Assembly: GCA_008632985.1 (NCBI GenBank)
Contig: QPGO01000079.1
Location: 124,001-188,000, forward strand
DNA from: Psammoneis japonica
Lineage: Eukaryota
Direction of reading: 5' to 3'
DNA: 64,000 nt
Part shown: in pieces, positions 23,790 through 60,755 of the stretch
How positions within the stretch are numbered: the stretch's first letter is position 1
Layout of the letters: every line of letters begins with the position of its first letter
The notes under the pieces: generated by a model
What the model saw: only the letters and a program-made list of their open reading frames with translations
Told to the model about the DNA's origin: nothing
Database searches by the model: none
Position numbers and translations under genes: made by a program

Positions 23790-24950
23790 GCAGGAATCAG
23801 GAGCGACACACTTGGATGACAGCTCTTCAAGCTCATTGGGTCAGTGTCGACCACGTCCCGAGAAGCGACCACCAGGCCGAAAACTTCCCGCTCCACCTCG
23901 ACACTCACGAGGCCCTCCCATGGAATCAAGATGATGGCTTTCAGCAGACCAATCATTGGGAGGAGCCATTCTGGCCGGATTGCCACAACCGCCGCCATCT
24001 GCATTGGTTCGGGTGTCGTTTTGATGTTGCATGCAGGAGCCACCATCTTCATGATGCTCGCCGCTGTTGCCACCAGAATTGCAGTTTCCTCGACCGCCAC
24101 AATTTCCTTGGCCACCACCACGACCTTGACAGCCACGGCCTTGCCAACCACGACCTTGATTTCCGCCAGTGCATCATTTCCAATCATGCGTCCTGCTCTT
24201 GTGCACATCTCGTGCCACGACAGAGGGAAGCCATCGAAAATCATCTTCTTCTTTTGGTTCTGAGCAATGACTGGATTGTTTCCCGGCAACTTGTTTGTGT
24301 GTCGCACCAAAGTTTCCATTCGATCTGCGTGTGCCTGTGCTTCAACGTCGTGCGGCTTTTTAAGAGCAAGCAAGCATTCATTTGTCGTGTCACGAGCTTC
24401 AATTTCACAACACGACAAATAAAAACGAGCCAACTCTTGGTCGAAACGAGCTGCCATCTTCTGCGCATCCGGAATCGCCATGGTGAGATTGGACCATTTG
24501 TCTTCAGCTGCATCCATCAACACTTCTTCAAAATTGTCAAACAATTCTTCTCCTGCAGTGAATTCGAGTTTTGCAGCCAGTTTACGAAAATGATCTTCCA
24601 CAAACAACAACGCTTCAATTCCATTGCTTCCGTCAAAACAAGGGCACTTTTTCGTACGCGTGCCACCATCATCATGCGGTTGAGTCAATTTTACGAGTTC
24701 CAAATCCGAATGAGCAAATTTCGCAGCATGCAAAATGCACGGTTCCTTGAGGCTCTCGTGATCACTCATCAGGCCAAGTTGGTCCACCAAGAAACTGTTT
24801 CAAGCACTCTACCTTCGATTCGAGTTGTGCTGCCCAATTCACCAAATCCTGTTTGCGTTGTTTTCGTGTCTCCTTTTCTCGTTTTTGTTCCAAAGCCCAA
24901 TTCGCTGCCTTCGCTCTCAAAGTTCTTTTCTCTTGTTTCGCAAGCCTGTC
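23790..24950 (-). pseudogene. gag: Gypsy gag, degenerate
   Basis: ORF 23699-24790 lies between the 5' LTR and the protease, with a Gly/Arg/Asn-rich C-terminal part in shifted frames. Confidence 0.7.
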
Positions 24951-24996
24951 AGTTGTGTTGTTGTTTCTCATTCAGCTCTTTACAATCGACTGCAAT

Positions 24997-25185
24997 TGCA
25001 GTGCAAGCTCAAGCTGAGGTTGATGTCAAAACAAAGAAGTGAGCAGACCAAAGAGAGGGAGAGCCCAAGCATCAGCGAACGCTGGCGAGTGCTGGCGAGT
25101 GCTGGCAAGCCCTCTCAAACGGCTGCATCAATCTAATGTCCAAAATTAATGCTGTGTGTCAGAAGTGTGCGAGTGAGTTGCTGCA
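24997..25185 (-). repeat. 5' LTR (189 bp, TG...CA, with a 10-bp internal duplication)
   Basis: Direct repeat of 19978-20156. Confidence 0.92.
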
Positions 25186-28170
25186 CGTAAAATGGGGTCA
25201 TGTGACAAAATTTTGGTCTTGTCACAATGCCTTGATGCCTAAATCTTGCCATTTTCCAACATGATTTTGGAACAACTAGTTCAAGAGCCGGGCTCGGTCT
25301 CATCAGGAGGCCTTCAATGCACGCATCAAGAACTTCGCATGCCTTTCGGCGACGTTTTGCCATGGCATCAAAAGGCATCGACAATGCTTTGAGGCCGTGC
25401 AGTGGAGATTGGCAACACCAGGTGGAATGTGGCTCACCCCTCTTTGACATGTAGAGTGTGTGACATCACATCAAGATGTTTCCAGTCATTGACATTTGAC
25501 AAATGACTTTCCACGATGAGCAGTCATTGATGACTTTCCACGACATTAATGACTTTCCACGATGGCATCGTGGAAAGCAAAGACTTTCCATGACAGCATT
25601 GAATCGTGGAATGCTTTCCACGATGCGACTGCCTTCCATTGAATTGTGACTGCATCAAACATTCGTTGCACACAGCAATTGAATGTGTTTGAATTGTCTG
25701 GGCAGAAAGCATTTTTTCAACGGACAGTGAGAGGGCAACATGTGGATTCAAATGTCCTGTTCACGCAATCCCACAGTAGATTCTATGCTGAGAAGTGCGA
25801 GCATGCCCAGTGCGACACTCAACATGCTTTCCACGCTTTTGCGGTGACTTCCTGTGCCGCTTCAACGCAAAAAAGAAGGCCCTGATGCGCGTGTGGAACT
25901 TTCATTGAGGACAAACATGCGCCAGTGTCTAAGACAGTTTGTGCAACCTGTGCATGACCAACAACGAACAAAAGCAGTCAACAACATCACTTGCAGGTCG
26001 TTGCGATGACATCAACACCAGCAGGGATTCCAGCTGGCAATTGACGAGGCACACGAGGGAAATGGAGGAGCAAGTTGTGTTGGACGTGCTTCCAGATGAT
26101 GAGTCACTTGACGATGGGTCTCCCGATGAGGAAACACCTGAAGCCAAGCACAAAAAAAGCCAGGCAATCGCCCCTTCCCCTTGCCAACACTGCATGGCTC
26201 CAACATTGTTCTACTTGGATTTGGTGACCTCAACAAACTCCTTCAACATCGCCAAAACGCACTCTCTTTTTGGAAACAATCTTGAGGCCCATGTGCACTG
26301 GTGCTGCGAAAAACTTCTCAAACTTGTCATCCAAAAAAGAAAGAAGTGCCCAAGCAACCTGCAACGGACTCAGCACCTGAAGTGATCAACATTGCTTGTC
26401 ATTCGCAGCTCTTCTAGAATCGAAAAATCAACCTTTCTAGCCCACTTCATTGGCCGCACTCGCTCCGGGTGAATGCTTTGCAAATGTTGCCACAATTTTG
26501 CGGTCGAAAAGTGCTCCAAGATGGTCATGGGCGATCCAATCCCATCTGATCCCATCCAAAACAATGTGCTGCATTGTGCTGAATGGCACAACTGTTTTGT
26601 CGAGGGAAACTGCGGCCATGTGTCAAACCATTTGGCACGACATTCACCCCAGATGGACTTCATCATTGTGGATGGCTGCTGCACACCCTTTGCTTTAAAT
26701 GACTTTTCTGGACCTCTCATTGCAGAAGGGTCACCGAGCTTGTGCGTGAAGAATCTGACAGATTTGCATGTTGGTCATTTTATTTTGACAATGCTGGTGC
26801 TGGATGAAGAGGCATTTGAGATTGGCAACATGCTTGGGGTGAAAAATGTGTGGCAGAAGAAAGTTTGGAAGTGCATGACAGGAATTGCTTGCTGTCTTTT
26901 AGAGTCCGGCTTTGCAAAGCAGAAAGCAAAAGAGGCTGTGGACAAGGTGAGTGCATCACGCATTGCCAAAATGGCATCAATGCAGGCTTCAGACTGAGCC
27001 AAAAATCGAGTCATGGTGCACTCTCATCCTTTGGAACATTGGTGGCGATTGCTTGGCGACTCCAAGCTTTGCATTGGTTTCCTGTTTTGCTGAGAAGTTG
27101 GCAGCCAAGAAACTGTGTTCCAAGGTGGCTTTGCACTGTGCTTGAAGAACAAGTGTGAACGAAAGTAGAACAAAGTGTGAAAAGTGGAAATTGTGAGATT
27201 AAATTTTGCTCTGTGATTTTTGGTTTCTCTGAATCATGAGTTCTCAATGGCCTGAAGCTTTTGCACTGCTTCTGCAGACAAAAGGCCTTTCGGAGAATGC
27301 AGCCGTGACAACAGATTGTCCAGATGCAATTGCCATTGATGCGCAAGATGTCAACATTGCCATTCGATTGCATTTGCAATTTTCAACTTCCTGTCAACTC
27401 TGTGTGATCATTCTGTCCTTTGCATGCATCCACGATTGTGGCACGATTGACATGTGTGTGATGCACTGTTGCACACATGGCCTGTTCCAGCTCCAGGTGC
27501 TCCGCTTTTCATCACGCTAGATTTTCTACGCAGTTTTCAGTGCCAGACATTTTTGTCTCCACCCGGCAGAGCTCGCACTTTTGGGCTTTGTGCAAACATT
27601 GATTGTTTTGATGACGTGACACATTCATGATGTCAATGCTCATGTGCAACAACTGAGGTGCATTGTGCGTCACAGGAAGAATCGTGTCAGTTGGCATTTG
27701 ATGTTTTCTGGCAATGCGCGGAACAATGCTGACTTCTACGAACACGTGCCGTCCACCCAACACACACCAGCCACAAACGCAGCACACCACTGTCACCACT
27801 CCACAACCCCATCTTTGCCCTTGCGGTTGTGTGGAACCGCCTGCTCCTTTCACTTCAAAGTTACATCATTGTTGTCGCAGTGCAATTGCGGCTCTGAAGA
27901 GTTGCTGTCATTGCGGATGACACCATCTCTTTGCATTCTCTCGTTTCGAATTCGGCAAGTCATTCCATCGTGTTGTTTTTTTGCACGTCACCGCGCGCCT
28001 GCATTTTTCTGGTTGCTTCTCACGTGTCGTTTTATGGTTGTTTTGCACCAGGGCCTTCGGAGCTTCTACAAAACTCAAGCATTCGCCCTGGCGTTCTCCG
28101 AGTGACAGTTTCCACTGGAACAAACTTGTCTTGGTTTGTTTTCACTGTGATGCTTGCTGTTTGTGCTTTT

Positions 28171-28400
28171 CAGCATCTGGAGCTGCCTTGGAGGCTGCCT
28201 CTGTTCATCCGCATCACTTTCGCGGTGACTGACGTTGGCCCCCTCTCTGGAGTGCATTTGTCGCACAAGCAGGAGCGCAGCTTGCTGTTTGACACTTTTC
28301 AGCATCTGGAACTGCCTCAGAGGCTGCCTCTGTTCATCCGCATCACTTTCGCGGTGACTGACGTTGGCCCCCTCTCTGGAGTGCATTTGTCGTACAAACA
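28171..28400 (+). repeat. 129-bp-period local duplication at the head of the tandem array
   Basis: CAGCATCTGGA.CTGCCT..GAGGCTGCCTCTGTTCATCCGCATC at 28171 and 28300. Confidence 0.85.
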
Positions 28401-31400
28401 GGAGTGCAAAAGCAGTGCATTCGCCATGGACATGTTGGCCAAAGTAGCCTCCCAACAGCGTCCCGTTGGCGGCAGTTCTCCTCAAGCTAACGATGCATCT
28501 TCCAGCACGTTGAAGGTTTCCTTTTGCATCCAGCATTGCGTCAAGGCACTCGCGGAACATTGCCCACCGCAGGGCAAAGCCAAAACTTGGCACACTGCGC
28601 CTCTCCAAGATGCAGTTGATCCCCTTGAGTGCCCTCAAGGTCTTGTAGATTTGAGCATCTTGACCACAGAAGATCGTGGAACAAAGAAGACGAGCCCTCT
28701 CTTTCATGTTCTTCATCACAAGAATGGTTTGGATGGGTTCAACAGTGCCAAAACACGGAACACATTCCGCAACACTGTTGTCGATTGGTTTTGTGAAAAA
28801 ATTTAACTCCGAGAATCAACCGCAACTGAACCAATGCATCAAGGACAAGAACCAGCACCTCTTGATGTTGGTTGTGGTGCCATCAGGAATGTGATGAGGG
28901 ATGCCGTGAAGGACAAGCAAAACATTGCTGCTGTTTTGATGTGCCGTGTCAAGACAAACATTGGCCTGCTTGTTGATTACGTCCATGTGACAGAGTCTCC
29001 GGTTGTGTCAGTTGGGATGGGCGATGAGAGTCAATCGATCGTGCCGTCGAGTTGAGGTGCATGTCCTTTTTTGATTGGACTTGCCCAAGCCATTTGCCAT
29101 GGTGTTGTCAAGAAGATGGATGCATGTCTTCATTGTCAGAAGACTTTGAAGTCTCATTGCATGGGAGTGATGGGTTTTGAGGACATCACGGACACCATGA
29201 GTGATCGTTCCGATCTGGCAGACATCCGCAAGCACTGGGACTGGGATGATCTCATGATGAATGATCAAGGCAACACTGTTGCCCTGTGTGCAAAGGAGAG
29301 GATTACTCCAATGAGCTCTGCAATTGTTTTGGCATTGCCTCATTCCAGCGCCGAGCATCAGAACGTTGCAACAGAGATCCGCAAGGACAAAGACTGTTGG
29401 GAGGAACCGCTTGTTGAAGGAGGATGCATTGCTGATCATTCGTGCATTGCCAAGCGCTGATTCCACTTGGCATCTTTGGTCAACATTCAAAACCTAGAAT
29501 TGCACAATGATGAAAAGTCGACCCAAGATTTAAAGATGCATGCGTGGCTGCCTTTTGGCGAGGTCATGTTTCAAAGTTGGTGGCAAATTAAGTCTCCAAA
29601 GGGGGTGAAGAACAATTTTGAAATGTTGGCTTTGAAGGGGTTGGACATCAAGTTCAAATGTGAAACAAGATCTCCCGTTCTATCTGCAAAACGTCACTGG
29701 GGTTCAATCTGCAACCATTGCTCTGTTCCAAACGAAATCGCTCAGAGGAAGCAGGTGGACGAAAAGCCACGTCAAAAACCACGCATCAGCTATGAGAAGT
29801 TGAAGAAGCCCATTGTGGATCACAGTGACGATTGTGTTTTTCATGACGAGTGTTGCAAAAGGGAGAAGCTTGAACAGTCGGATGATGACATGCAGGAAGA
29901 TCCCTGCATTCCCGAACTTCCCACCAACGCACCACACAAAGTGCTCATGAGTTGCCCGAGTGGCTGCCGGAGGATTTTCTCATTTGGGCCATTTGAACCC
30001 GATGACAGACTGCCATCCGAGGCCTTGTTTGACGCCATTGTGGGTTGGTGGCACAACCATGCATTGCAGATTACCTCTGGTGGGGAATGCATCTGGAACT
30101 GCCTCAGAGGCTGCCTCTGTTCATCCACATCACTTTCGCGGCAACTGACGTTGGCCCCCTCTCTGGAGTGCATTTGTCGCACAAACAGGAGTGCAAAAGC
30201 AGTGCATTCGCCATGGACATGTTGGCCAAAGCAGCCTCCCAACAGCGTCCCGTTGGCAGCAGTTCTCCTCAAGCTAATGATGCATCTTCCAGCACGTTGA
30301 AGGTTTCCTTTTGCATCCAGCGTTGCGTCGAGGCACTCGCGGAACATTGCCCACCGCAGGGCAAAGCCAAAACTTGGCACACTGCACCTCTCCAAGATGC
30401 AGTTGATCCCCTTGAGTGCCCTCAAGGTCTTGTAGATTTGAGCATCTTGACCACAGAAGATCGTGGAACAAAGAAGACGAGCCCTCTCTTTCATGTTCTT
30501 CATCACAAGAATGGTTTGGATGGGTTCAACAGTGCCAAAACACGGAACACATTCCGCAACACTGTTGTCGATTGGTTTTGTGAAAAATTTAACTCCGAGA
30601 ATCAACCGCAACTGAACCAATGCATCAAGGACAAGAACCAGCACCTCTTGATGTTGGTTGTGGTGCCATCAGGAATGTTGATGAGGGATGCCGTGAAGGA
30701 CAAGCAAAACATTGCTGCTGTTTTGATGTGCCGTGTCAAGACAAACATTGGCCTGCTTGTTGATTACGTCCATGTGACAGAGTCTCCGGTTGTGTCAGTT
30801 GGGATGGGCGATGAGAGTCAATCGATCGTGCCGTTGAGTTGAGGTGGCATGTCCTTTTTTGATTGGACTTGCCCAAGCCATTTGCCATGGTGTTGTCAAG
30901 AAGATGGATGCATGTCTTCATTGTCAGAAGACTTTGAAGTCTCATTGCATGGGAGTGATGGGTTTTGAGGACATCACGGACACCATGAGTGATTGTTCCG
31001 ATCTGGCAGACATCCGCAAGCACTGGGACTGGGATGATCTCATGATGAATGATCAAGGCAACACTGTTGCCCTGTGTGCAAAGGAGAGGATTACTCCAAT
31101 GAGCTCTGCAATTGTTTTGGCATTGCCTCATTCCAGCGCCGAGCATCAGAACGTTGCAACAGAGATCCGCAAGGACAAAGACTGTTGGGAGGAACCGCTT
31201 GTTGAAGGAGGATGCATTGCTGATCATTCGTGCATTGCCAAGCGCCGATTCCACTTGGCATCTTTGGTCAACATTCAAAACCTAGAATCGCACGATGATG
31301 AAAAGTCGACCCAAGATTTAAAGATGCATGCGTGGCTGCCTTTTGGCGAGGTCGTGTTTCAAAGTTGGCAGCAAATTAAGTCTCCAAAGGGGGTGAAGAA

Positions 31401-34400
31401 CAATTTTGAAATGTTGGCTTTGAAGGGGTTGGACGTCAAGTTCAAATGTGAAACAAGATCTCCCATTCTATCTGCAAAACGTCACTGGGGTTCAATCTGC
31501 AACCATCGCTCTGTTCCAAACGAAATCGCTCAGAGGAAGCAGGTGGATGAAAAGCCATGTCAAAAACCACGCATCAGCTGTGAGAAGTTGAAGAAGCCCA
31601 TTGTGGATCACAGTGACGATTGTGTTTTTCATGACGAGTGTTGCAAAAGGGAGAAGCTTGAACAGTCGGATGATGACATGCATGAAGATCCCTGCATTCC
31701 CGAACTTCCCACCAACGCACCACACAAAGTGCTCATGAGTTGCCCGAGTGGCTGCCGGAGGATTTTCTCATTTGGGCCATTTGAACCCGATGACAGACTG
31801 CCATCCGAGGCCTTGTTTGACACCATTGTGGGTTGGCGGCACAACCATGCATTGCAGATTACCTCTGGTGGGGAATGCATCTGGAACTGCCTCAGAGGCT
31901 GCCTCTGTTCATCCGCATCACTTTCGCGGTGACTGACGTTGGCCCCCTCTCTGGAGTGCATTTGTCACACAAACAGGAGTGCAACAGCAGTGCATTCGCC
32001 ATGGACATGTTGGCCAAAGCAGCCTCCCAACAGCGTCCCGTTGGCAGCAGTTCTCCTCAAGCTAACGATGCATCTTCCAGCACGTTGAAGGTTTCCTTTT
32101 GCATCCAGCGTTGCGTCGAGGCACTCGCGGAACATTGCCCACCGCAGGGCAAAGCCAAAACTTGGCACACTGCGCCTCTCCAAGATGCAGTTGATCCCCT
32201 TGAGTGCCCTCAAGGTCTTGTAGATTTGAGCATCTTGACCACAGAAGATCGTGGAACAAAGAAGACGAGCCCTCTCTTTCATGTTCTTCATCACAAGAAT
32301 GGTTTGGATGGGTTCAACAGTGCCAAAACACGGAACACATTCCGCAACACTGTTGTCGATTGGTTTTGTGAAAAATTTAACTCCGAGAATCAACCGCAAC
32401 TGAACCAATGCATCAAGGACAAGAACCAGCACCTCTTGATGTTGGTTGTGGTGCCATCAGGAATGTTGATGAGGGATGCCGTGAAGGACAAGCAAAACAT
32501 TGCTGCTGTTTTGATGTGCCGTGTCAAGACAAACATTGGCCTGCTTGTTGATTACGTCCATGTGACAGAGTCTCCGGTTGTGTCAGTTGGGATGGGCGAT
32601 GAGAGTCAATCGATCGTGCCGTCGAGTTGAGGTGCATGTCCTTTTTTGATTGGACTTGCCCAAGCCATTTGCCATGGTGTTGTCAAGAAGATGGATGCAT
32701 GTCTTCATTGTCAGAAGACTTTGAAGTCTCATTGCATGGGAGTGATGGGTTTTGAGGACATCACGGACACCATGAGTGATCGTTCCGATCTGGCAGACAT
32801 CCGCAAGCACTGGGACTGGGATGATCTCATGATGAATGATCAAGGCAACACTGTTGCCCTGTGTGCAAAGGAGAGGATTACTCCAATGAGCTCTGCAATT
32901 GTTTTGGCATTGCCTCATTCCAGCGCCGAGCATCAGAACGTTGCAACAGAGATCCGCAAGGACAAAGACTGTTGGGAGGAACCGCTTGTTGAAGGAGGAT
33001 GCATTGCTGATCATTCATGCATTGCCAAGTGCCGATTCCACTTGGCATCTTTGGTCAACATTCAAAACCTAGAATCGCACGATGATGAAAAGTCGACCCA
33101 AGATTTAAAGATGCATGCGTGGCTGCCTTTTGGCGAGGTCGTGTTTCAAAGTTGGCGGCAAATTAAGTCTCCAAAGGGGGTGAAGAACAATTTTGAAATG
33201 TTGGCTTTGAAGGGGTTGGACGTCAAGTTCAAATGTGAAACAAGATCTCCCGTTCTATCTGCAAAACGTCACTGGGGTTCAATCTGCAACCATCGCTCTG
33301 TTCCAAACGAAATCGCTCAGAGGAAGCAGGTGGACGAAAAGCCACGTCAAAAACCACGCATCAGCTGTGAGAAGTTGAAGAAGCCCATTGTGGATCACAG
33401 TGACGATTGTGTTTTTCATGACGAGTGTTGCAAAAGGGAGAAGCTTGAACAGTCGGATGATGACATGCAGGAAGATCCCTGCATTCCCGAACTTCCCACC
33501 AACGCACCACACAAAGTGCTCATGAGTTGCCCGAGTGGCTGCCGGAGGATTTTCTCATTTGGGCCATTTGAACCCGATGACAGACTGCCATCCGAGGCCT
33601 TGTTTGACACCATTGTGGGTTGGTGGTGCAACCATGCATTGCAGATTACCTCTGGTGGGGAATGCATCTGGAACTGCCTCAGAGGCTGCCTCTGTTCATC
33701 CGCATCACTTTCGCGGTAACTGACGTTGGCCCCCTCTCTGGAGTGCATTTGTCACACAAACAGGAGTGCAACAGCAGTGCATTTGCCATGGACATGTTGG
33801 CCAAAGCAGCCTCCCAACAGCGTCCCGTTGGCAGCAGTTCTCCTCAAGCTAACGATGCATCTTCCAGCACGTTGAAGGTTTCCTTTTGCATCCAGCGTTG
33901 CGTCGAGGCACTCGCGGAACATTGCCCACCGCAGGGCAAAGCCAAAACTTGGCACACTGCGCCTCTCCAAGATGCAGTTGATCCCCTTGAGTGCCCTCAA
34001 GGTCTTGTAGATTTGAGCATCTTGACCACAGAAGATCATGGAACAAAGAAGACGAGCCCTCTCTTTCATGTTCTTCATCACAAGAATGGTTTGGATGGGT
34101 TCAACAGTGCCAAAACACGGAACACATTCCGCAACACTGTTGTCGATTGGTTTTGTGAAAAATTTAACTCCGAGAATCAACCGCAACCAAACCAATGCAT
34201 CAAGGACAAGAACCAGCACCTCTTGATGTTGGTTGTGGTGCCATCAGGAATGTTGATGAGGGATGCCGTGAAGGACAAGCAAAACATTGCTGCTGTTTTG
34301 ATGTGCCGTGTCAAGACAAACATTGGCCTGCTTGTTGATTACGTCCATGTGACAGAGTCTCCGGTTGTGTCAGTTGGGACGGGCGATGAGAGTCAATCGA

Positions 34401-35450
34401 TCGTGCCATCGAGTCGAGGTGCATGTCCTTTTTTGACTGGACTTGCCCAAGCCATTTGCCATGGTGTTGTCAAGAAGATGGATGCATGTCTTCATTGTCA
34501 GAAGACTTTGAAGTCTCATTGCATGGGAGTGATGGGTTTTGAGGACATCATGGACACCATGAGTGATCGTTCCGATCTGGCAGACATCCGCAAGCACTGG
34601 GACTGGGATGATCTCATGATGAATGATCAAGGCAACACTGTTGCCCTGTGTGCAAAGGAGAGGATTACTCCAATGAGCTCTGCAATTGTTTTGGCATTGC
34701 CTCATTCCAGCGCCGAGCATCAGAACGTTGCAACAGAGATCCGCAAGGACAAAGACTGTTGGGAGGATCCGCTTGTTGAAGGAGGATGCATTGCTGATCA
34801 TTCGTGCATTGCCAAGCACCGATTCCACTTGGCATCTTTGGTCAACATTCAAAACCCAGAATCGCACGATGATGAAAAGTCGACCCAAGATTTAAAGACG
34901 CATGCGTGGCTGCCTTTTGGCGAGGTCGTGTTTCAAAGTTGGCGGCAAATTAAGTCTCCAAAGGGGGTGAAGAACAATTTTGAAATGTTGGCTTTGAAGG
35001 GGTTGGACGTCAAGTTCAAATGTGAAACAAGATCTCCCGTTCTATCTGCAAAACAGCACTGGGGTTCAATCTGCAACCATCGCTCTGTTCCAAACAAAAT
35101 CGCTCAGAGGAAGCAGGTGGATGAAAAGCTGCATCAAAAACCACGCATCAGCTGTGAGAAGTTGAAGAAGCCCATTGTGGATCACAGCGACGATCACGTT
35201 TTTCATGACGAGCATTGCAAAAGGGAGAAGCTTGAACAGTCAGATGATGACATGCAGGAAGATCCCTGCATTCCCGAACTTCCCACCAATGCACCACACA
35301 AAGTGCTCATGAGTTGCACGAGTGGCTGCCGGAGGATTTTCTCATTTGGGCCATTCGACCCCGATGACAGACTGCCATCCGCGGCCTTGTTTGACATCAT
35401 TGCAGGTTGGTGGTGCAACCATGTGTTGCAGATTGCCTCTGATGGTGAGT
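28302..35450 (+). repeat. Tandem array of four ~1787-bp near-identical units
   Basis: Unit starts GCATCTGGAACTGCCTCAGAGG at 28302, 30089, 31877 and 33664. Matching ORF translations recur with the same period. Confidence 0.97.
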
Positions 35451-37500
35451 GCAGAGGCACCACTTGTCCGCCGGAGCAGTGGTGCAAGCCTTTCAAGCCA
35501 CAATGACACTCCGAGTTAGTGGAGGCCATCGCCAAAGACAAACAAATGATTGAAGTCCACTTCCCTGCCGGACCAACCAGGAAGGATTGTTTCAGAGAGC
35601 CGCTTGCTCACCTTGCTGATTGGTGCAAGGCAGCTCCTGGACTTGCATGGCACAAGTTTTGCAGAAGGATTCATTGCCATCGTTGCATGCATCATGCTGG
35701 TGCTCGTGATGCAGGGTTGAAGGAAGAGGTGGAGGAGGAGGAAGAGGAAGAGGGGAAGGAGGGCACTGAAGAGACGGATGACCTGCAAAAGGCCAAGGCT
35801 GGCACTGCAAGGTTGCAACTGCAAGACAAAAACCAGGAGGAGGAAGATGGAGCCATGGATTAATCGCCTGAGGAAGAGGAGGAAGATGGGGTGATGGAAC
35901 AATCACCTGAGGAAGAGGAGGAAGATGACGGTGTGCAAGACGAAATCCAGGAGGAGCAAGATCCAGAGGAAACTGAGGACGAGGAGGACAATGAATGCAA
36001 GGAAGAAGTTTCTGCGGCTGCAGAAGAGAAGAGGGAGAAAGCCAAGACTGCTGAAGAGAAGAGGGAGAAAGCCAAGGCAGCCAAAGAGAAGAGGGAGAAA
36101 GCCAAGGCTGCAAGAGACAAGAGGGAGAAAGCCCCAGCTGCAGAAGAGAAGTGGGAGATGGTGGGAGACGCTGGATGCAGATGTTCACATCAGACCTTGA
36201 AAGACACAACTGGAGTGCACAAGGATGAGGATCTCATTGGCCTTTGCAGCTCTGTCCCGAAACCAAGGCCAAAAGGAGACATTTCATGGCGTCGGTTGAC
36301 CAAAGCGCAGCGACACCAAGAAGAAAGGGATCGACTCGAGCGTGAGTGCGAAGATGCTCAAGTGATGTTGCAGGTTAAAAAACTCATTTGGATTGATCCA
36401 AGCAAATGGAACAGCCGGCGTCAGCATCCTGGCGATTCCAAAGGAGACGTTCCTCACTTGTTTGGTTGCTTTGAAGGGAAAAACAAGGGCGTCATGTTGT
36501 GCGAACCATGGTTTGATGCGCGATGCAATGAAATGAACGGCCATCCCATGAACACGTGCGCGAGCCTCATCACACGTGCCAAACACAAACCAAACGTTCC
36601 CCAGCAACTCAATCGAAAATGCAGGGACGAGATTAAGAACAAGGTGGAACCGATTTGCAACCCACCACAGATTGCCAAACTGAAGAGATTGACTGAAGCA
36701 GAGATTCAAAAACTTCCACCTGTTGGGCATGGAGCTGATTTCATTGGTCGCAGCTTGGAGGGGAACAGTCCCACGCATGTAACCCTGGATTGGGCTGAGT
36801 GCAATTTTAAGTTTCAGTTTCCAGATGTGTGGAAAGATTTGAAAGAATTGAAGCCATCGGATGGTTGTTGCTCCTTGCCGGAAGGAAGCGTGTTGATGCC
36901 ATCGAACAGCAACTTGCCGACGAGCGGTCCACCCATGAAATTCCTGCAAGGACAAAACGACACTTGCATTTTTTCCTCCCTGGCCAGTGTTCTTGATTGT
37001 GCTGGCGACATGGAAATGAGAGACTACATTGCTTCTCACATTCAAACATCTGCCAACTGTGCTGACACTAACAACAAGTGCATGTTGTTTGCAAAGAACA
37101 TGTTGAACGGTCGTTTGAAGGGAAAATTCCCGCCTGAGAACTCAAACATGAAGTTTTGCGGCAGTGTGGATCAAACGATTTCCCTTGCAGCAGGTGGTGA
37201 ATTTGATGTGACAACCTGCAATGATGACTTCATAACTTTGTGCCGTCTTGTGAACAACCACTGCATTGCCTTGCACCGTGGATGGATCTTTGACTCCAAC
37301 CACCCTTTTGCATTGCCAGCAAAGGACATCAAGTGTTTCAATTGGTGTCTTGGGAACGAGGAACATGAGGTGAAACACAAGGCAAAAAAGCATCTGCAAC
37401 AAGTGTTCATGGTGCACCAGTTCGAACTTCCCAGGGCGGTGCAGCAGAAGTTGCATGCAAAAAGGAAAGCTTTTGTGTTGGATGGCCAATCTAGTTGCGC
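33664..37500 (+). pseudogene. Large cargo gene relic: GNAT-like segment, acidic/EK-repeat linker, C-terminal papain-like Cys-His-Asp motif set
   Basis: ORFs 33620-35506, 35519-35863 and 35891-37720 lie in one frame. Motifs VDYVHV..RGAcPFL.GLAQ..cLHC..LKShc..MGF; QGQNDTC...NHCIALHRGWIFDSN. Confidence 0.5.
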
Positions 37501-37512
37501 GACATTGCCATT

Positions 37513-40500
37513 TCATTCATCCAAATTGTCACTGTCACTGTCCCCTGCCGCGCTCTCATCATCCTCCACAGTGTCTTCCATGTCGTCATTCTCTCCCCCC
37601 CACTCACCAGCTTCGATGTCTTGTTCCTCCACCTCGTCCAAACAGTCCTCAAAACAATCCATTGCCTCCCGCTGTCGGATGGCATCCAGAATTCCTTCAT
37701 GCTCGTCATCACTCAAATGACATGGATGAAGAAGTGAAGCCTCATTCCTGTTGCACATGCTTGGCAGTTCCAGATTGGCTGATGGTTCATCAAGCTCAAT
37801 GTTGGCGGCTGCAATTTGCTTGAGCAACACTCTTGTCTTGCATTCCTCAGCATCACCGGGAGTGTGCCATCCTCTGGCCTGTGGAACAGGGTTGAGACAC
37901 GTTCCCTTGCAAACCCATTCACTGGCCTTGACAGTTGTGGGTGGGTCAAACTCTTTCCAAACCTCGTCCTCCTGTGCTTTGTGGGGGGAGTTCATCCCAT
38001 TGCAGCAGACAGAATCCCTCCTCAGATTCACAAGACAATGCGGCACAGCTGTTTGGAACAATTTCCTTGGCCATTTCCTCAGTCAGGAAGTCCAACACAG
38101 ATTTGTGAACCAACTGCACCTCGTTGGCGTCACTCTCATCTGTTTGAATCACCTGACACACTTGCCAATCGTTCAGTCCCTCAAAGATGGGCCACAGTTT
38201 GCAAGCTCGGTTGACAGGCTTCACAAGCACAAGGAATTCTTCGCAATGCAACCCAACCAATCGAGAAAAGAGGTTCAAATCGGAAATGGTGCAAGGCTCC
38301 AATGCCACAATGGCGCATGTGCACTTGCACCAATCCAGTCAACTTGACTTTGATTGAAGAGCCAAGAACATCGTCAGCTTCCTGCAGACAATGCACCCTT
38401 TGCATTGACTTTCAAAGGGATTCCCTCTTGGCATGTTTTCTGTCACCAACTGCACCGAAAGCATTCTTGTTCTTTGTGACTGTTTTGCAACATTCCTTTG
38501 CATGACTGTGCGTGGCTACAACACTGTTGTCATCCATGACCAAAGCTTCAGGTCCAATTTTCCCATCCTTGTCATTGGCTCCTGCAACAGTTGCAGACCG
38601 CATTTCTCGATGTGTGAGTGATTTGATGCAGGCTCCAATGCCATCAACCTCTCCTTTGCCATGTCCAGGTGCTCCGATGGCACGGTCAAACACAATGTTG
38701 CATTTGTGCGCAAAGACAGACAACAAGCACAGCGCCAAAGCACATCGGCATTGTTTGGCACAACCATCAGTGTGATCCCAAATCACAAGCCACGCCTTGT
38801 GCAGGTTGCAGTTTTTTAACCAGGTGACAAACTTTTCCAAGTGAGCATTGGCGGTGGTGGCATCTTGCTTGGAAGAGTCAGAGAGATGCGCATGATGTGT
38901 TTTCTGAAGCTTGTTGTCAACCATTGCATCGCAAACTCTTCCTTCGATTGACAATGTTCGGTTGTTGCCACAATGGTCACCCTGAACTTGGTTGTTGAAC
39001 TCTGCCTTCTGACGCTCGGAGCAGTCATGAGACGTGAACAGGCTGTTGGGTGTTGACTCAAATGCTTTGCGACGCATTTCCATGCAATGATTTTTCCCAA
39101 GAATGACCACATGGGGAAGGTGGCAGCGGAGCTTCTCTAAACTTGGAATGCAGTGCTCTTTTGTGAAGACACCGACTGGTTTTCGGAACCTTGTCAACAA
39201 GGTCCTGCATTTCACCTTTGCATCCTTGTTCCCATCTGGATCTGCCTCACAAACAGGACATGCTTCCATGTGCACACCATGCTTGGAACAACTTTTTGCA
39301 GTCAAGCAACGTTGAAACAAAACTTGGGGCGCACTGGGACTTTCATTCTGTTCCAACAATGGAGTTGGACAGGATGGGCAATGCTCGCATTCACCCAAAA
39401 CGCATTTCCAATGAGGATGATCCTGACCATTGACATTGCCACAAATGATGGTTGCAACTGCATCTCGGGCTTTAGGATGAAGGTGATGGCTGTTGGAGCC
39501 AAACGCTTCCTCTTGACAGACACGCATTGTTTCCTCCAATTTGCCAAGGGCACTGTCACAGTTCTCCAAGTTCTCAGGATCCTCACTCGCAAGCTTCAAC
39601 CGATTTTGCTCCACCTCCATCTCTTTTAAAAGCTTCCTTCGAAACCTGTTCAATGCATCTTGCAGAAAATTGGCGTTGGTGCAATCGCTGCATTGACACA
39701 TGATGCGTTGACTTGCGCTCATTTTTCGACACTGCTTGGGAATCAAAAATCGAAACATCGTGTCGCTGATGAGGGTCTTGCCATTGGCATCACGTGCATG
39801 TTCGAATCCGCCAACAGACACAGGCTTCAACATGTCGTTGTGCAGCTCACGTGTGGACACATTGCGCAACCATTTGTTCACTCGTTTCTTGTTTCCATCT
39901 TCATCTTCAATGAGAATCATGTCTCATGTGTTGGGAGACTGCACTGTGTCAGGATGATTTGACAACCAGTGCACAAATGCCTTTCGGATCTCAGGGGAAA
40001 CTTTGTGAGGATGCCGATGGGGTTGCACTGAAGACCACATGACATCATCAGTGTTTGAAAGCAACACCTCTCTGGCAATCTTTCCCTTCTTCATTTGGCG
40101 ACAAACAGTGCTCCGTTTCAGGCCAAGTGCCTTGGCGCAGTCATGGGAAGACAACTTTTCCTCTTCAGCAGATTTTTCTGGTGAACTGGAGATTCCAGTT
40201 GCAAGAGCACGGACAAACGATTTTTTGTCGTCGGCGAGGTGTTGACCATTGCTGGTGTCATTGGCACGTGCCCACATTTTGCCCAGCTGCTTGGCAATTT
40301 GCAAGGCCGCAGCATTTGTTTTCGGCAATGTCAAGTTGCAAGCCTGAAGAAATGGGGCCATTTCGGGAAAATGCAAAGCATGCACAAATGCACAGATTTG
40401 TTGTTCTTGAGTGGCGGCGCAAGACAACACTCCTTCTCTTGCTTTGACCGCTGCATGACAAAGTGCCTGTTGGGGATCTTTGTGGGTTGCTTCGAATGCA

Positions 40501-41015: not shown

Positions 41016-44000
41016 TTCAAGTTCACGACAAGGCTTCTTGTTTTTGCTGTTGCCAGTCCCTGACTTGTGTCAACGGCCAACTCCATTTTGCTTCTTCCTT
41101 TTGTTGCCCATGATGCACTGGAAATTTGATTGAAAGTGTGCGTCGAGAGGGCTGGTGGATGAGACGGATGGCAAGTCGAGAGGACACATTTTTTTGGCGT
41201 GCTCAATCAAATTAACTGCATTGTGTCTGTAGAAATGAGGCATGTTCAGACGTCAGTTGAGTTGAAGAAGACCAAACACACGAGCTCCGAAAAATGAAAA
41301 AGTGAGTGATCACGAGCATTTTTCACGTAGAATGGGACACCAGCCGAAAATCACATTTGGCACAATTGAGTCCTTCATTTTTGATCATTTCGAAAATCGA
41401 AAGGTGAGTGTACACCCGAAAACACATGTAAAGTGTACACTTGCCCTTCAATTTGGCAAAAAATGGATTTTGATGACAAAACAGTCAAAACTCTTTGCAC
41501 CCCCACAGTCATGTCTGATCCTGTGATTGTTGAAAGCAACAAGCTTGCAGAAAGCATTCTGCCTCATGACACAGTCTGGGTCTCCTCTGAGTCTGATCAG
41601 AAAGAGTTTTTGCCATGTCTCCTCTGGCCCACCACAGCCAACTTTCCTGTGTTTGACTGTTTGTGCTTCCACCCAAATGGCGAGGTGTCTCCACTTCAAA
41701 TGACCAACGGGAAATGTGGCAGCTGCAACTTGCAGGCAAGCGGCAGTGAGGAAGCAATTGCCTGAACTGGAAGCAATCAGCAGGATGCAAAAAAGTTGGA
41801 TGAACCAATGGTGAGATCTCTTTTAACTTTGACCATGATGAAGAGTCTTGGTGCCCAGCAAGAGAGGCAAGCTGTGGACTGCCCCTTCAAAGAAACTTTT
41901 CTTTGATTGGAAAGCACCCGCAATGGAAACAACCACAGAGTCTCTTGTTGACCTGTGAAATGTTTTGCTTCCCAAAGGATCACCTGCACCACAGCTGCTG
42001 GCTCATCTGAGCTGATCGCACCAAGGAACTGCACAGCGCCAATGGCGAATGCATGACAGGGGGGTGCGTGCTCTCCATTTTATGAAGTCTCCTCACTGGG
42101 AAGGGGAGAAAACAAGGAAAGCAAATTGCACGGGTCTCCAAGGTAGAATGGCGACCCTTGCCTTGACCAGCACATTTGTTGCCAAGCCAATCATGGTCAT
42201 CCCACAAGACCCAAGATGGCTTGAGCAACCCATGTCCCCTGAGCACAACCAGCTCATGCACTGTTGTTGCCAGTCACGCTGCTGCTCATGGACCAACCCA
42301 TCACAAGAGAAAACACATGTTGGGCTTTGGCAAAACCCACCGTCAAAGTGCAGGCCCTCCAACACCTGTTGTCCAATGCCTCTGCTGTCTGTGTCTGGCT
42401 TTGGGGGGGGGGGGGGAGAACAAGAACTCACTTTTGTGATGGAGGTGGCTTCCAGCATCTGCTGCTGGACACTGTTCTCTCTCTGTCTCTCTTGCAGCCA
42501 CACTGCCAAAGTTCACTCCATCTCTTGCCCTCTCTCTGCAAGAAGTGAGGAGGCACTGCCTGTGCAACAACTGCAGTGCTGAGAACTGCAAGCTTGCCAG
42601 TCACACCGGTCACACAACCAAAGCAGTGCTTTTTCTGTTGGATTCCATGAGTTGCACTGACCAATGCTCTCTTTCTAAAGCAGTGTTGCAGAAATCTGCC
42701 AGAAGCAAGCACGGTTCAACCTGTGGCATCCACACAGCCCCATTTGACATGATTGTTCATGTTTTTGTGGGGGTCATGAAAAACAATGCAGCCATTAGAA
42801 CATCAACAGCAACCACAGTGCACCAAGGTGAGATCAAAGAATGATTGCAAGCTGGCTCTGATGGCCATCAGAGGCCGCAATGTGGTGGCTTCCACTTTCC
42901 TTTGTGTGTTTTTCAACATGCATTGTCAAAATTGTCAACAAACTGAATTTGAAAACTGCCGGCAACAGTGCTCAACAAAGTGCAGCTGTTTTGTGCATTT
43001 TGTCTCTGATGTCTCATCAGCTTTTCTTGCACAAGCTTCAATCAAATGCATGCAATGTTTGATTTGGTTGGGATTGACATCCATTTTTATGATGCATTTT
43101 TTGGTTTCCTTTTGATGGTCATCAACTTGAACTTTGTTTCAACTTTGGCCCTCCCCAACTCACGTGCGTGTGTCTTTGCACATGTGCAGTCTGCTTCACG
43201 CACGCACGTGACCCACCCTAATTTTAGGTTCCTCTTCATGCTTCCCAGATTTGTGCAGCCCCCTTGGTCTGCAGCGTTTTCAGCATTTTTTTCACATGTG
43301 CAATTTTCCACACACTTCACAATGGCACACCCTCTCCCCAAAAGTTGAAAAGCAAGAGCATGTGCTGTCATGATTCATGTGGATTCTGCGTGTGGCTGCA
43401 AATCTGCAAATCTACAACCCTGTTGGCCAATGACAGCAGCTCAACAAGTGGTGAAACCTGCTGTTCTCCTTCTGGTTGGTCAAGACAGGTTTTGATTGGG
43501 GCATTGCTTGAGTTTCGTGATCATGAGTGTGCTGTCATTAATCTGCTGCATTGAAGAATCATCATCCAGAGTGCACCAAGCCACTGGCATGTTGTTGTGT
43601 GCACTCATGTCACAAACTTTTCTGCAGCATTGGCACAATTGCGTGTGTCAGAATTTTGCATCCAGAATCATTGCAAGTTGCCATGAATGACACTCTTCAA
43701 ACAAGGTGTGTGCAAAAAGAGGTTCATTGGTTTTTGATGCATTTGCCAACATTGTGTCCATCTCCTCCAATTTTTACATCCAGATCCAGAAAGACTGCAG
43801 GTGGTGCTTGTTCCCACAGCTCTCAGAATCACACACATGAAATGTTGCTTGCCACAAATGACACTCTTCAAACAAGGCATGCACAAAAAGGTTTTTGATG
43901 CATCCGCCAATGTTGCGTCCGTCTTCTCCAATTTTCGGCACACAGATCCAGGAAGACTGCAGAGGCAGAGAGCAGGGAGGCAACTCATTGGAGGTTGCCT

Positions 44001-45399
44001 GAGTTGTTGGGCTCATTTTTAAAGGCTTCCCACATCTCTCTGCTGCTTCTGGTCCATGCTCCAAATTGTCATTGATGAACCATCTCAGCATGGGAGGCAC
44101 AGGGCAAACTCAGTCATTGCTGCATGACTTTGTTGTTCACACAGCACTTTGCACAGTGTGGCACACATGCAGGTGGTGCTTGTTCCCACAGCCATTCCAG
44201 CAAGTGCATTCTGTGGCACTTGAGATGTTTTTTGCTTGCTCATGTGCTTTCTTTCTGTGTTTCTTTAAATTGCAGCAGTGGAGCTGGGTGCTTGATCTCT
44301 TGCACTGCTCACAGGTGCCCACATTGCTGCTCCATGATCAGCGCCGGTGCCAGATGCACTGGCGAGTCTGTGTTGCTGTTCACATTGGTCATGTTGGCTC
44401 ATCTGTGTCATGCTCTCACAACATGCTTCATGCTTTTTGGCAACAAACAAGGCAGATCAGAGCAACAGCACTTCGCCTGCTCCAGAATCAGTGGCATCAG
44501 ATGCACTGCCAAGTCTGTGTTGCCATCCCCATGGGTTGTGTTGGTTCATCTTCGTTGCACTCTCACAACGTGTTCTGTGCTGTTTGGCAATGAACAAGGT
44601 GGATTGGAGCAATGGCAGTTCAAATCATGGAACAGCAGCTCCTGCTGCAAACTTGCCTGATCAGAATCAATGGCACTGGATGCACCGGCAAGCCCACATT
44701 GCCGTTCCTGTTGGTTGTGTTGGTTCATCCACACTGCACTCTCACAACATGTTCTGCACTTTTTGGCAATGAACAAGGTGGCTGCCAGCAGTGGCACTTT
44801 GGGAAAGAGAAGTGCAACTGCTGATGCAAACTTGTGTGGTGTTGTCTCCATCAGCATCAAATTGAAACAGATGTGAACAACAAAATGAACATTTGTGGTG
44901 CAATGCAAATGGTTTTATTTTGCAGGTTTTGTGGGGACAGAGGGTGGGCACTCTCACAGGGAAACGGGTTGCTGTTTCACAGCAGTGAAACATGTTTTTC
45001 TCACAGGGAGGGGGGGGGGTCAGACCCCACAGCATGAAAATGTTCATCTGTCACAGTTGACATGTCATCACCATGCACACAACTGATGAGGTTTGATGGT
45101 GTGTTGTTTTAACCTCCAAAAGGAAAAAATCAGTGTGGGAAAGGAGTTGCCAATCACTGCAATGTGCACTCTGATGGCACTCACATGTCATCTGTTGATC
45201 CTTCAATTGAAACCAGTTGACACCAAGTGATGGATGAATCTGAAGGCATTTGGCACACCAGATCCTCCTGGCAATGCCAGGCCAACTTCAGCTCAATCTG
45301 GCTCATTGCTGTGCCACTGGAAGGAGGCCTCATCACATTGCATGCCAAACTGATTGATGGTTTGAATGTTGAAACCAATCAAGGGAGTTCCACAAGATC

Positions 45400-50800: not shown

Positions 50801-53248
50801 CGGGGGCTGCACATTCTGCTGATGATCAAAAAACTGATGCCCAGCTTGTGGTGGATGCAACGCAACAAACTGTGCCACCAGTGTGCAGGTGCCAATGGCA
50901 TGGAACCTTTGGCACAACTTCTGAATGACAAGGACTCACTTGTGCTGGGCAGCTGCACATGGTGCACACTGTGTGGGGCAAGGGACAACAACAACCTGAG
51001 CTCTTTTCTCTTTTGTGTTGTGTGTCACAAGGCAAAAATGTCAATTGTCGACAACAGTGTTGGGCTTTGTCTGCAAAACACATTGAATGTTAGCTTCTTC
51101 TTGAGGCTTGAATCTGCCTCTGCCGCTGGTGTGCCTGAGGACCAGCCAGCAAAAGATCAGTCTTCCTGGTGAGCGGCATTTTTCCACTTGCCTGGCTGGG
51201 CACAATTTTGTCTCCACAACACATTGAATGAGTCATTGGCCAATTGGCACAGCATTGGGCAAGGTGTGCAAATGTTCCTTTGAATGCATTCTTTTGTGAT
51301 TGCCAACAAACTCAAGTGAGTTGAGGACAAAGTCTGACACAGGCTGCAGGCCATCCCCAACATGGTGCCCAGCAAGGTGCAGAGGAGCTTGAAGGCATGG
51401 GCAAAAAAGTGTGGCTCTGCATGGTGCAAAAAAGATGCTTCTTTGCTTGTGTGACTGCCTCACAATCTGTTGTGTTTTTGCTCTCTTGAGCCTGTCATCA
51501 TTCAGGTTCACAAACTTGGTGTGGGCTGGGTCCACCATGGCATGCAGAAAGGAGGGCAAGCTTGAGCACAAAAAGAGCGCCCTGACACAATGTGCTGCAT
51601 TGTGTTTTCTTTGTGCAAGCAGGAGATGAAATTTCTCATGTGGGCTCTGCTGCTTGCTGATGCCACACACTGCATGAGAACAAAAATGTGCAGTGCACAG
51701 CACAGCTTTGGCGGAGCTGTGGCAGCATTGTCAGCTGCCAGTGCAGCCAGCAGGGCAGAGTCAAAAGATGTCAGTGCAACAGTCATGATGACTTGTGCAG
51801 CAGCACAGCAAATTCAAAGTGACCGAACACAAACTTGTGTTTGCAAAGTGGGGGGGGGGGCAGAAATCTGATTTGAGAGAAGAGGAGCAGCCCAAAAATG
51901 AGGCTTTGGCTTTTGGAGTGGGGCAAAGTCAGAGCTGAGAAAGGCCAGGATTTGTGTGAGGCCACTCTGGGTGGTGTCGCCACTTGCAAGGAGAGTTGCA
52001 GTGGTGGTCTGTCTGCATGGTGATTTTGTGCATTTTTGCACTTTCTTCCATCCCTGCATCCCTGCGACCTCCAGCCTGATCCAGCTGGAGTCGGGTTGGT
52101 CCGGATCGGGCTGGAGGTGGCAGAGGGATGGACGAAAGTGCAAAACGTGCACAGAACTCATGCCGCATGGACAGACTGCTGATGCAACTCTCCTTGCAAG
52201 CAGTGACACCCAACTCCACAGGATTCAGTGCAGCCTGTCTTGAGCACCGTGGGTGCAATTCAGGCCCCTCGCTGTGGGAGAGTTGTTTTTGGCACCTCAT
52301 TTTTTCCCTGAGCCTGTCTTGTTTGGAGTCAATTTCTGTGCAGCCCCAGCTTGAAATGTTCCTGGAATTGCTTCAGATTCCATCAGAAAGCGGTGTTCCC
52401 AGATGTGGGTTGGGTGTTGTGAACCTGGGCACCCCTGTGGCTGCATCGTCGCAGCGCTGGCAAAGTGGGGAGGTCTTTTTGCAGAGAGCTCTGTCCTCGA
52501 CAGAGATTTGCACACCGACAGTTTGCAACTTTGGTCAGTGCAGTTGTGTGAAAGGTGTCTGGCTAAACTTCAGATTGCTGATTGCCAGCAGAGCATCTCC
52601 ACTTGTTGTTTGGCCTGACCAACCTCCCTGGATGGCATCGGACGTGGGACATCCAGTGAGGTCTGTGCGGCGCGCAGGCGGAAGAGGCGCGAGCGCGTGC
52701 AGAGCTGATGCTGCAGCGAGAAGTTGCGGAGGTCGTTCGCGCCACGCACCCAGAACACAAGAGAAACTTCCCGGATTGTTCGCGCAGCAACACGTCAGTG
52801 GCATGAAAACACGTGCTGAGCAGGTTTCAATGACAATCGTGCTGTGACGCACCAAGCCGCATGATGTTCCCAGTAGCGGGTGTAAAAACTCAAGTTATGA
52901 GTCAGTCGCGCCGCAGCAGCATCGTACGTACGAGTGGGTCACACCACAACAGCACAACGCCACTTCAACGTTGCTTGCATACGCACTTCACCTGTCTCTG
53001 ACGTGATACCTTTTAGAACTTTCCTGTGATAATTTATTTAAGGACTCGATACGACGGAACATTCCTGAAGGAGAAAGGAAGAATCCAGCCAAAGTGTCAC
53101 ATCTCTCGCAACCACTTCCTTGCACAAACAACACAAACAGTTCCTTTCCCAGGTTCATTTTTCGTTGACAACGAAATTTGAAACGACAGGATTTCATTTC
53201 CCTGCAGTGTGTTACCATTTATACAAAGTCTTTCCCTTCTTTTCAATC

Positions 53249-60624: not shown

Positions 60625-60755
60625 TTAAAATTGTAACTTTTGAAACAGATTATCAAGTTTACACTTACATTATATCTCAGCAAAAGACATCGTCGTAGTC
60701 TCTCTTTGTTGCTGTTTCAGAAGCAGGGCTCGCCGACGTCGTCGTAGAATCCCTT

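Follow-up and report, generated by a model that had tools for sequence, protein, structure and literature searches.

Tandem array and its repeat units

This analysis concerns a four-unit tandem array, and the TpA-poor island that contains it, in a 64,000-nucleotide stretch of DNA from Psammoneis japonica (positions 124,001 to 188,000 of contig QPGO01000079.1, assembly GCA_008632985.1), referred to below as the window and numbered from its first letter. The window is eukaryotic nuclear DNA, with small-subunit (SSU), 5.8S and large-subunit (LSU) rRNA genes recognized at 3176-9113 using Rfam. Self-BLAST and a repeat finder distinguished four direct repeats arranged head to tail at 28302-35453 (1787, 1788, 1787 and 1790 bp; start-to-start spacing of 1787, 1788 and 1787), preceded by a short partial copy and interrupting an orphan open reading frame (ORF):

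27898-35506, + strand: orphan reading frame interrupted by the array, stop codon at 35504-35506
28152-28279, + strand: partial copy, 129 bp (43 codons, in frame), its source being 22 nt of upstream flank plus the first 107 nt of unit 1
28302-30088, + strand: unit 1, 1787 bp; 13 TA, three stops in the coding frame, two 1-bp homopolymer indels
30089-31876, + strand: unit 2, 1788 bp; 10 TA, frameshift from one extra G
31877-33663, + strand: unit 3, 1787 bp; 10 TA, one in-frame TGA, only two private substitutions
33664-35453, + strand: unit 4, 1787 bp plus the 3-nt GCA microhomology; 9 TA, no stops in the coding frame, the most diverged unit

The partial copy shares 93% identity with 28280-28408. 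The pairwise identity of the units is 96.69-98.94%, with 59 mismatches between units 1 and 4 and 19 between units 2 and 3. The original prediction of four tandem 1.79-kb units was therefore correct in number and place, and the units it called near-identical are better described as similar. A MAFFT alignment of the four units, proposed with that prediction as a check, contains 79 variable columns, and all of the quoted variants are present: (i) a site reading TG at 28355, CA at 30142, TG at 31930 and TA at 33717, (ii) GTCGTAC, AAGTAGCC and AGCTATGAG in unit 1, and (iii) CCTAGAA in units 1-3 vs. CCCAGAA in unit 4.

The array resembles a microhomology-mediated tandem segmental duplication: its copies lie head to tail, its length is unrelated to codon phase, and its junction is ambiguous over 3 nt (GCA), which are common to the unit start and the sequence just 3' of the array. 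As a duplication it shows nothing unusual, and its value is that of a time marker. A different origin, in which the array or its copy number would come from mis-assembled diverged repeats or haplotypes and some of the differences from sequencing errors, is very improbable. It could draw on the small number of substitutions private to unit 3 and on the three inter-unit indels, each a one-base length change (a common type of long-read error) at a single base or short run (A3/A4, T1/T2 and G1/G2, at 28796, 28891/28892 and in the region of 30847; columns 494, 590 and 758 of the unit alignment). These three indels may be sequencing errors and not real frameshifts. However, artefactual duplications are usually identical, whereas these units differ by 19-59 substitutions; the unit junctions are all identical in register; and 50 of the 59 substitution-variable sites fall in pyrimidine-purine (YR) dinucleotides, a non-random spectrum that sequencing error would not give and that argues against an artefact. 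The array is confirmed as a four-fold duplication in the sequence.

Reading frame of the unit

The frame of the unit extends upstream to 27898, through the in-frame 129-bp duplication, and downstream past unit 4 to the stop codon at 35504-35506. In one + frame there are no stops in unit 4, one in unit 3 and three in unit 1, whereas those units have 23-29 in each of their other two + frames. A unit length of 1787, which 3 does not divide, means that reading cannot stay in frame across any junction; what was duplicated is therefore an internal part of an ORF of approximately 750 codons, and the array is not a set of genes. Nor does it have the properties of a functional tandem gene array, as the frame is broken at every junction and units 1-3 carry stops or frameshifts; a TGA is common to units 1-3 where unit 4 has CGA. 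The consensus unit (595 codons) encodes one Tyr, 27 Cys and 26 His. The differences between units comprise 21 synonymous changes, 54 non-synonymous changes and one stop, vs. 51, 86 and one expected from CpG transitions, and the synonymous share (21/76 vs. 51/138 expected) gives no sign of purifying selection. As part of the joint explanation set out below, the unit ORF is on balance a dead coding segment that was already non-functional when it was duplicated.

Searches for relatives were negative throughout. Pfam gave no match for the four array ORFs, and the unit protein had no match among 5.8 billion proteins (word-index search) or in viral contigs, 0 matches among 1.84 billion representatives (HMMER) and no usable match in the ESM Atlas. 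A single-sequence AlphaFold2 model of it had a mean predicted local distance difference test score (pLDDT) of 34.2, with no confident fold. A degenerate pattern scan of metagenome contigs for a second copy of the unit, to serve as an outgroup, returned 0 matches, and for the ORFs neighbouring the array neither viral relatives nor other homologues were found.

Two candidate readings of the array as a functional structure were rejected. In the first, the TG/CA/TG/TA site quoted above would be a selected stop codon (TGA/CAA/TGA/TAA) ending the read-through of the preceding unit; the read-through frame is owed solely to the out-of-frame duplication. The second, in which trans-spliced genes of a dinoflagellate would form the tandem array, was abandoned when the mosaic described below came to light; the spliced-leader motif had 0 matches in the window at up to three mismatches.

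TpA-stripped islands of the window

A scan in 1-kb steps showed the window to be a compositional mosaic, in which stretches of normal TpA content alternate with stripped blocks. In the rDNA and host-type gene stretches the observed/expected ratio of TpA is 0.46-1.04 and that of CpG is near 1. In the stripped blocks the ratio is 0.00-0.15 for TpA and 1.40-2.07 for CpA+TpG, and CpG is reduced:

approximately 9.5-12.6, 16.1-17.5, 20.0-52.7 and 60.8-63.5 kb: TpA-stripped blocks (1-kb scan)
20200-52700: array-bearing island, TpA-stripped and enriched in CpA/TpG, with CpG nearly gone as well at 42-52.7 kb

The eight 1-kb windows of the array have TpA ratios of 0.08-0.13, CpA+TpG of 1.53-1.66 and CpG of 0.53-0.64; for the whole array, the ratios are 0.09 for TA, 0.60 for CG and 1.59 for CA and for TG. 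Island edges are sharp within 200 bp (e.g., 11 TA in 60600-60799 and none in 60800-60999). Relative to normal flanks, the islands have lost 66.6 TA+CG per kb and gained nearly as many TG+CA (60.5 per kb), and there is no asymmetry between TG and CA counts outside 10-12 kb and 20-22 kb. The encoded proteins are correspondingly biased: ORFs in the island have 0-0.3% Tyr and 7.7-11.7% Cys+His, vs. 1.5-5.1% Tyr in host-type ORFs. Dead genes keep long open frames (503-744 codons; e.g., 20480-22711 and 38415-39923 on the - strand and 33620-35506 on the + strand), because the process destroys TAA and TAG codons and has no way of producing new ones.

The left edge of the array-bearing island is occupied by a long terminal repeat (LTR) retrotransposon:

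19983-25186, - strand: Ty3/gypsy LTR retrotransposon (Pfam protease, reverse transcriptase, RNase H and integrase)
approximately 19983-20157 and 25002-25186: its LTRs, approximately 175-185 bp, 87% identical
19978-19982 and 25187-25191: its 5-bp target-site duplication, read from the alignment

Its pol frame is open over 744 residues, with one Tyr, 40 Cys and 36 His. In comparison with the Ty3 structures 7q5b and 4ol8, approximately ten Tyr positions of Ty3 read as His or Cys, and the catalytic YxDD motif reads HIDD. As Tyr has given both His and Cys (TAY to CAY or TGY), both strands have been hit. Judged from these replacements, the depletion is an in-place, polarised mutation of TpA to TpG/CpA in pol. 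The two LTRs of such an element are identical at insertion. Here, counted by eye, they are discordant at four sites with TA on one side, six with CG on one side and three of the CA/TG type (a scripted tally including flanks was higher), and the edge-side LTR retains CG at six of six and TA at three of four discordant sites. On one side of the target-site duplication the flank is normal and TA-rich (34 TA in 19600-19999), on the other it is free of TA (from 25187 on), and the element seems to have inserted exactly at the border of an older stripped block.

Flanking-base rule for TpA survival

Surviving TA were counted by context on both strands, with the array and a 463-bp repeat (described below) counted once each and the expectation taken from neighbouring normal DNA:

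ATAC/GTAT: observed 0, expected 416 (0%)
ATAT: observed 0, expected 221 (0%)
GTAC: observed 8, expected 199 (4%)
ATAA/TTAT: observed 22, expected 454 (4.8%)
CTAA/TTAG: observed 60, expected 216 (28%)
TTAA: observed 52, expected 144 (36%)

An additive half-site model, in which the base that precedes the T, or the complement of the one that follows the A, has a weight of 2.68 for A, 1.59 for G, 0.93 for C and 0.47 for T, reproduces the eight non-zero context classes to within 0.17 log units. Eight TA are kept by all four units of the array (three TTAA, two TTAC and one each of CTAA, GTAG and CTAT), and their contexts are less labile than those of constant TG/CA sites (p = 0.02).

Differences between units

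Alignment columns 0-1779 were divided into 425 aligned YR dinucleotide sites and 930 other columns. Constant YR sites number 166 for TG, 159 for CA, 42 for CG and eight for TA; variable ones involve CpG in 37 cases, TG vs. CA only in seven and TA in six. Substitutions are strongly concentrated in YR dinucleotides (50/425 vs. 9/930 other columns, Fisher p = 5e-18), and the non-YR variable columns contain seven transversions and two transitions, in addition to the three one-base indels. When CpG sites are left out, the concentration persists (13/346 vs. 2/930 transitions elsewhere, p = 2e-6). The original prediction that the units differ mostly at TA or CG sites thus holds for YR dinucleotides as a whole, in which CpG dominates (37/50) and TA is a minority (6/50).

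Much of this pattern is the signature of CpG decay: a CG deficit (0.60), CpG in most of the variable YR sites, and changes private to units 2 and 3 that run from CG to TG/CA. In a hand tally, these private changes comprise eight of CG to TG/CA, one of TG to CG, one TG/CA double and one transversion; no simple TA loss occurs among the changes private to these nested units.

The TG/CA state is common to all units at approximately 325 sites and discordant at seven. Loss of TpA after the duplication would be expected to leave the units in disagreement at about half of the lost sites; the observed agreement therefore dates most of the loss before it. A second argument, independent of gene conversion, leads the same way. 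Across the islands, 8.8% of TA and 44% of CG survive, while the unit differences are of the TA type in 13 cases and of the CpG type in 37, as fits a faster-decaying class that was nearly exhausted at duplication.

Likelihood models of the post-duplication changes

Changes at YR dinucleotides among the four units were fitted with 4- or 5-state Markov models, the best rooting separating unit 4 from units 1-3. The log-likelihoods (lnL) were:

CpG decay plus slow gains only: -736.35
loss only, of labile ancestral TA, the refractory class being frozen: -731.82
gain plus loss: -729.71
gain plus one-step TG/CA doubles: -729.01

The loss-only model estimates a TA loss rate 10.7 times the CpG rate and 16.5 labile TA at the root. 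The model restricted to CpG decay and slow gains is rejected, both against fast TpA loss (2ΔlnL = 13.3, p = 3e-4) and against one-step doubles (2ΔlnL = 14.7, p = 1e-4). This bears on the view that ordinary decay of methylated CpG (5-methylcytosine deamination), with background change and chance, produced all differences after the TpA process was over. That view would account for the CpG-type majority of variable sites, for the eight CG-to-TG/CA changes private to units 2 and 3, and for the CpG ratios of 0.53-0.64 across the array. However, in addition to the rejection of its model, it predicts only an estimated 0.4 or so double CpG losses on opposite strands in the comparison of unit 4 with units 1-3, where six were observed, and we consider it improbable.

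The fits do not separate continued TpA loss from TA gain combined with one-step doubles. The post-duplication TpA-related minority is either the tail of the TpA process or a related mutational activity at YR steps, and on the model fits and the partial copy the direction of substitution within the array is ambiguous between TA loss and TA gain. The same holds for the quoted site, where unit 2 has CA, unit 4 has TA, and units 1 and 3 agree with the partial copy on TG. To explain all four states, a TA ancestor had been proposed; on the likely history of the units it needs four events, a TG ancestor needs three and agrees with the partial copy, and the site is not diagnostic. As for the claim of a recent or ongoing process, a TpA-destroying process is clearly recorded in the window and CpG decay alone is rejected; most of the loss predates the array, and a recent or ongoing process is no more than possible.

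Proposed history of the array

The explanation we favour, and hold to be probable without great confidence, is a late four-fold duplication of a piece of a dead ORF within a TpA-stripped island, followed mainly by CpG decay and by a tail of TpA loss. A 1787-bp internal piece of the orphan ORF of approximately 750 codons would have been duplicated four-fold, head to tail, the first duplication occurring through the 3-nt GCA microhomology and the later copies arising by unequal exchange. At that time the ORF would already have been non-functional and most of its TpA already stripped. The surrounding island of approximately 33 kb would be DNA of probable mobile or foreign origin, in which conversion of TpA to TpG/CpA was almost complete and that of CpG partial. 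The process would be a locally targeted, DNA-level hypermutation of A to G (T to C on the other strand) at TpA, like that of Bigelowiella natans, together with CpG-to-TpG/CpA decay; a candidate enzyme is an adenine deaminase of the ADAT2/TadA type, as proposed in a preprint on that alga (Mettrop et al., 10.64898/2026.01.13.699255).

After the duplication, divergence would consist almost only of transitions in YR steps, approximately three quarters of it CpG decay. The remainder (the six TA sites and seven TG/CA discordances) would be the last labile TpA resolved independently in each copy, at approximately ten times the per-site CpG rate, with a few new TA arising from C to T at CpA. The eight TA kept by all units would lie in flanking contexts that the process handles poorly. 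Read in this way, the array would date the duplication to a late stage of island decay and record the tail of the process, not its bulk.

Several points weigh against this account. With a single site class, the likelihood prefers stable TA plus TA gains (c, the TA loss rate, approximately 0), and gain plus one-step doubles fits equally well or slightly better than gain plus loss (-729.01 vs. -729.71). The history of the units is not cleanly tree-like, as unit 1 has no private substitutions in alignment columns 241-1157 (p = 4e-5), and gene conversion among units may distort the likelihood model. Three TA are private to unit 1, with units 2-4 agreeing on the alternative, which favours gains; one of them, at 28393 (CGTA in unit 1), corresponds to CGCA in the partial copy and looks like a gain. 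The contexts of the TG/CA-discordant sites are no more labile than those of random TG/CA sites (p = 0.17). The ancestral composition of the islands and the TA content of the unit were taken from neighbouring normal DNA, which is an assumption; no outgroup copy that could polarise the changes directly was found; the number of copies and their variants are those of the assembly; and the foreign or mobile origin of the array ORF is putative.

A rival account is dual deamination at YR steps. Here no ancestral TA would have remained after the duplication, single-unit TA would be new, produced by C to T at CpA, and the TG/CA discordances would be one-step CA-to-TG doubles (C to U plus A to I on one strand). 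The best lnL belongs to this model, with a double rate (e = 0.078) at or above the single rates (b = 0.054, d = 0.058), and both changes of a CA-to-TG double would be deaminations of the same strand. The derived appearance of the TA at 28393 and the YR concentration of the non-CpG changes agree with it, and the preprint cites ADAT2 enzymes with deaminase activity on A as well as C in DNA (10.64898/2026.01.13.699255). Yet only 0.7 lnL separates it from gain plus loss, the mechanism that it requires has never been demonstrated, the LTR pair fits simple independent TA loss (binomial estimate), and the extreme TpA depletion would still need TpA loss. We consider dual deamination unlikely and retain late duplication with a tail of TpA loss as the preferred history.

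Other features of the window

Pfam searches of 119 ORFs in the window recognized only the Ty3/gypsy domains, three host-type genes and one ORF with a MYND finger:

15093-15911, - strand: UCH (ubiquitin C-terminal hydrolase) gene, host-type
55016-56156: TatD gene, host-type
58733-60621: Gaa1 gene, host-type
16825-17745, + strand: ORF encoding a MYND zinc finger, also with a weak PRiA4_ORF3-like match

The host-type genes have 0-1 introns across their Pfam domains, and the best relative of the UCH product in the searched protein collection is 63% identical. The MYND-finger ORF lies in a small stripped block (no TA in 16200-16999); with 1.0% Tyr and 12% Cys+His, it could be a host gene or part of a mobile element.

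At the 3' end of the array, just inside unit 4, two substitutions private to this unit make its end GTGAGT (35446-35452), which resembles a 5' splice site and lies approximately 410 bp 5' of a same-strand ORF of 618 codons (35864-37717). This downstream orphan ORF opens with short coding-type tandem repeats of 18, 39 and 30 bp, rich in Glu and Lys (35719-36158).

Within the array-bearing island, the sub-block at 42000-52700 has CpG ratios of 0.04-0.26 and CpA+TpG of 1.8-2.07, with no recognizable ORF, and it may be older than 20-41 kb or carry heavier methylation. The stripped block next to the rDNA contains three tandem copies of approximately 463 bp (10006-11380; 89-92% identical), with 0-1 TA per kb and CpG ratios of 0.05-0.11. 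Strand asymmetry is marked at 10-12 kb (260 TG vs. 115 CA; AT skew -0.62), whereas the other islands have no such skew. The complete rDNA unit (3176-9113; TpA 0.72-1.04) is bordered on both sides by stripped DNA (1-1000 and 9200-12600). As rDNA is normally repeated and was spared, repetition alone is probably not the trigger. In their sequence, the 5.8S gene and the 3' end of the SSU gene (4928-4948) give a weak hint of a stramenopile.

Comparison with known mutational systems

The closest known system is that of B. natans. As described in the main text of the preprint, mutation-accumulation lines of this alga show approximately 1000-fold hypermutation, confined to TpA and almost only from A to G or T to C, in two regions, one of an integrated giant virus and the other of a virophage. 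Its genome has 124 clusters of 1-kb windows that are depleted in TpA, enriched in CpA+TpG and rich in ORFs that are unannotated or of transposon type, and the candidate enzyme proposed there is an ADAT2-like deaminase (Mettrop et al., 10.64898/2026.01.13.699255). The thresholds given for such clusters are a TpA rho of at most 0.43, over at least three consecutive 1-kb windows, and a CpA+TpG rho of at least 1.52, although the formula for rho used here may differ slightly. All windows from 20001 to 52001 lie below the first (0.00-0.15), and the eight array windows exceed the second; island windows 20001, 21001, 24001 and 36001 fall just short of it (1.40-1.50). As to a viral, transposon or other foreign origin of the target DNA, a Ty3/gypsy element lies at the island edge, and for the array ORF and its neighbours, whose foreign origin is putative, no homologues were found.

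The islands share with those described for B. natans their local TpA depletion and CpA+TpG enrichment, the occurrence of both TpG and CpA outcomes, and the association with reverse-transcriptase-bearing and unannotated ORFs. They differ in that (i) the depletion is far deeper here (TpA approximately 0.5%, rho 0-0.15, vs. 3.3% and rho 0.45 for the giant-virus region, designated NCLDV for nucleocytoplasmic large DNA viruses, in the preprint), (ii) CpG also decays in the islands, whereas the main text of the preprint makes no mention of CpG, (iii) a flanking-base rule is visible, (iv) the host-type genes have 0-1 introns vs. approximately eight per gene in B. natans (PMC13746701, Table 1), and (v) the process was followed there in mutation-accumulation lines, while the island here is read from sequence. 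Beyond the B. natans preprint, no other descriptions of TpA-stripped islands were found in the literature searched.

Other systems match in part. Repeat-induced point mutation (RIP) of fungi creates TpA and removes CpA/TpG. Like the process studied here, it confines transitions to particular DNA (repeats, transposons) and inactivates coding sequences, and C to T at CpA may account for the few TA gains of unit 1. The direction here is the opposite, however, with TpA removed and CpA/TpG accumulating; the rDNA is spared and the young array is only lightly affected. A fungal origin or RIP was rejected as a candidate, as the fungal ITS1-F primer site is absent and the composition is opposite (TA 0.09, CA and TG 1.59). 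CpG decay of methylated transposons by 5-methylcytosine deamination shares the predominance of CG-to-TG/CA changes between units and a CpG depletion limited to the islands, but can account neither for the loss of TpA nor for the surplus of TG/CA discordances, and methylation is putative here.

TadA/ADAT2 and ADAR adenosine deaminases prefer an A preceded by U/T, and their product is read as G, which matches the TpA target and the A-to-G outcome in the islands. ADAR has a preference for a 3' G; the flank preference here is different, running A>G>C>T at the position before the T (or, as its complement, after the A).

More ambitiously, the window could represent a second, non-chlorarachniophyte eukaryote with a genome-defence mutator acting on YR steps of silenced mobile DNA. 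Such a mutator would deaminate A at TpA (with RTAY erased and TTAA largely spared) and C at CpG/CpA, now and then hitting a CpA at both of its bases at once, and the TG/CA discordances would be direct traces of these double events. We regard this extended proposal as rather doubtful.

Significance

The window offers a further case of a system described only very recently, to which it contributes some mechanistic detail: the flanking-base rule, co-occurring CpG decay, sharp edges at transposon ends, sparing of the rDNA, and open frames without tyrosine. As a relative clock, the array suggests that TpA loss was several-fold faster than CpG decay and mostly finished before the duplication. For annotation, islands of this kind will yield long, plausible-looking orphan ORFs that are dead and carry a risk of mis-annotation. 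For the biology of the process, the window suggests that a B. natans-type mechanism acts in what is probably another, intron-poor eukaryote, where it has reached a much more advanced state.

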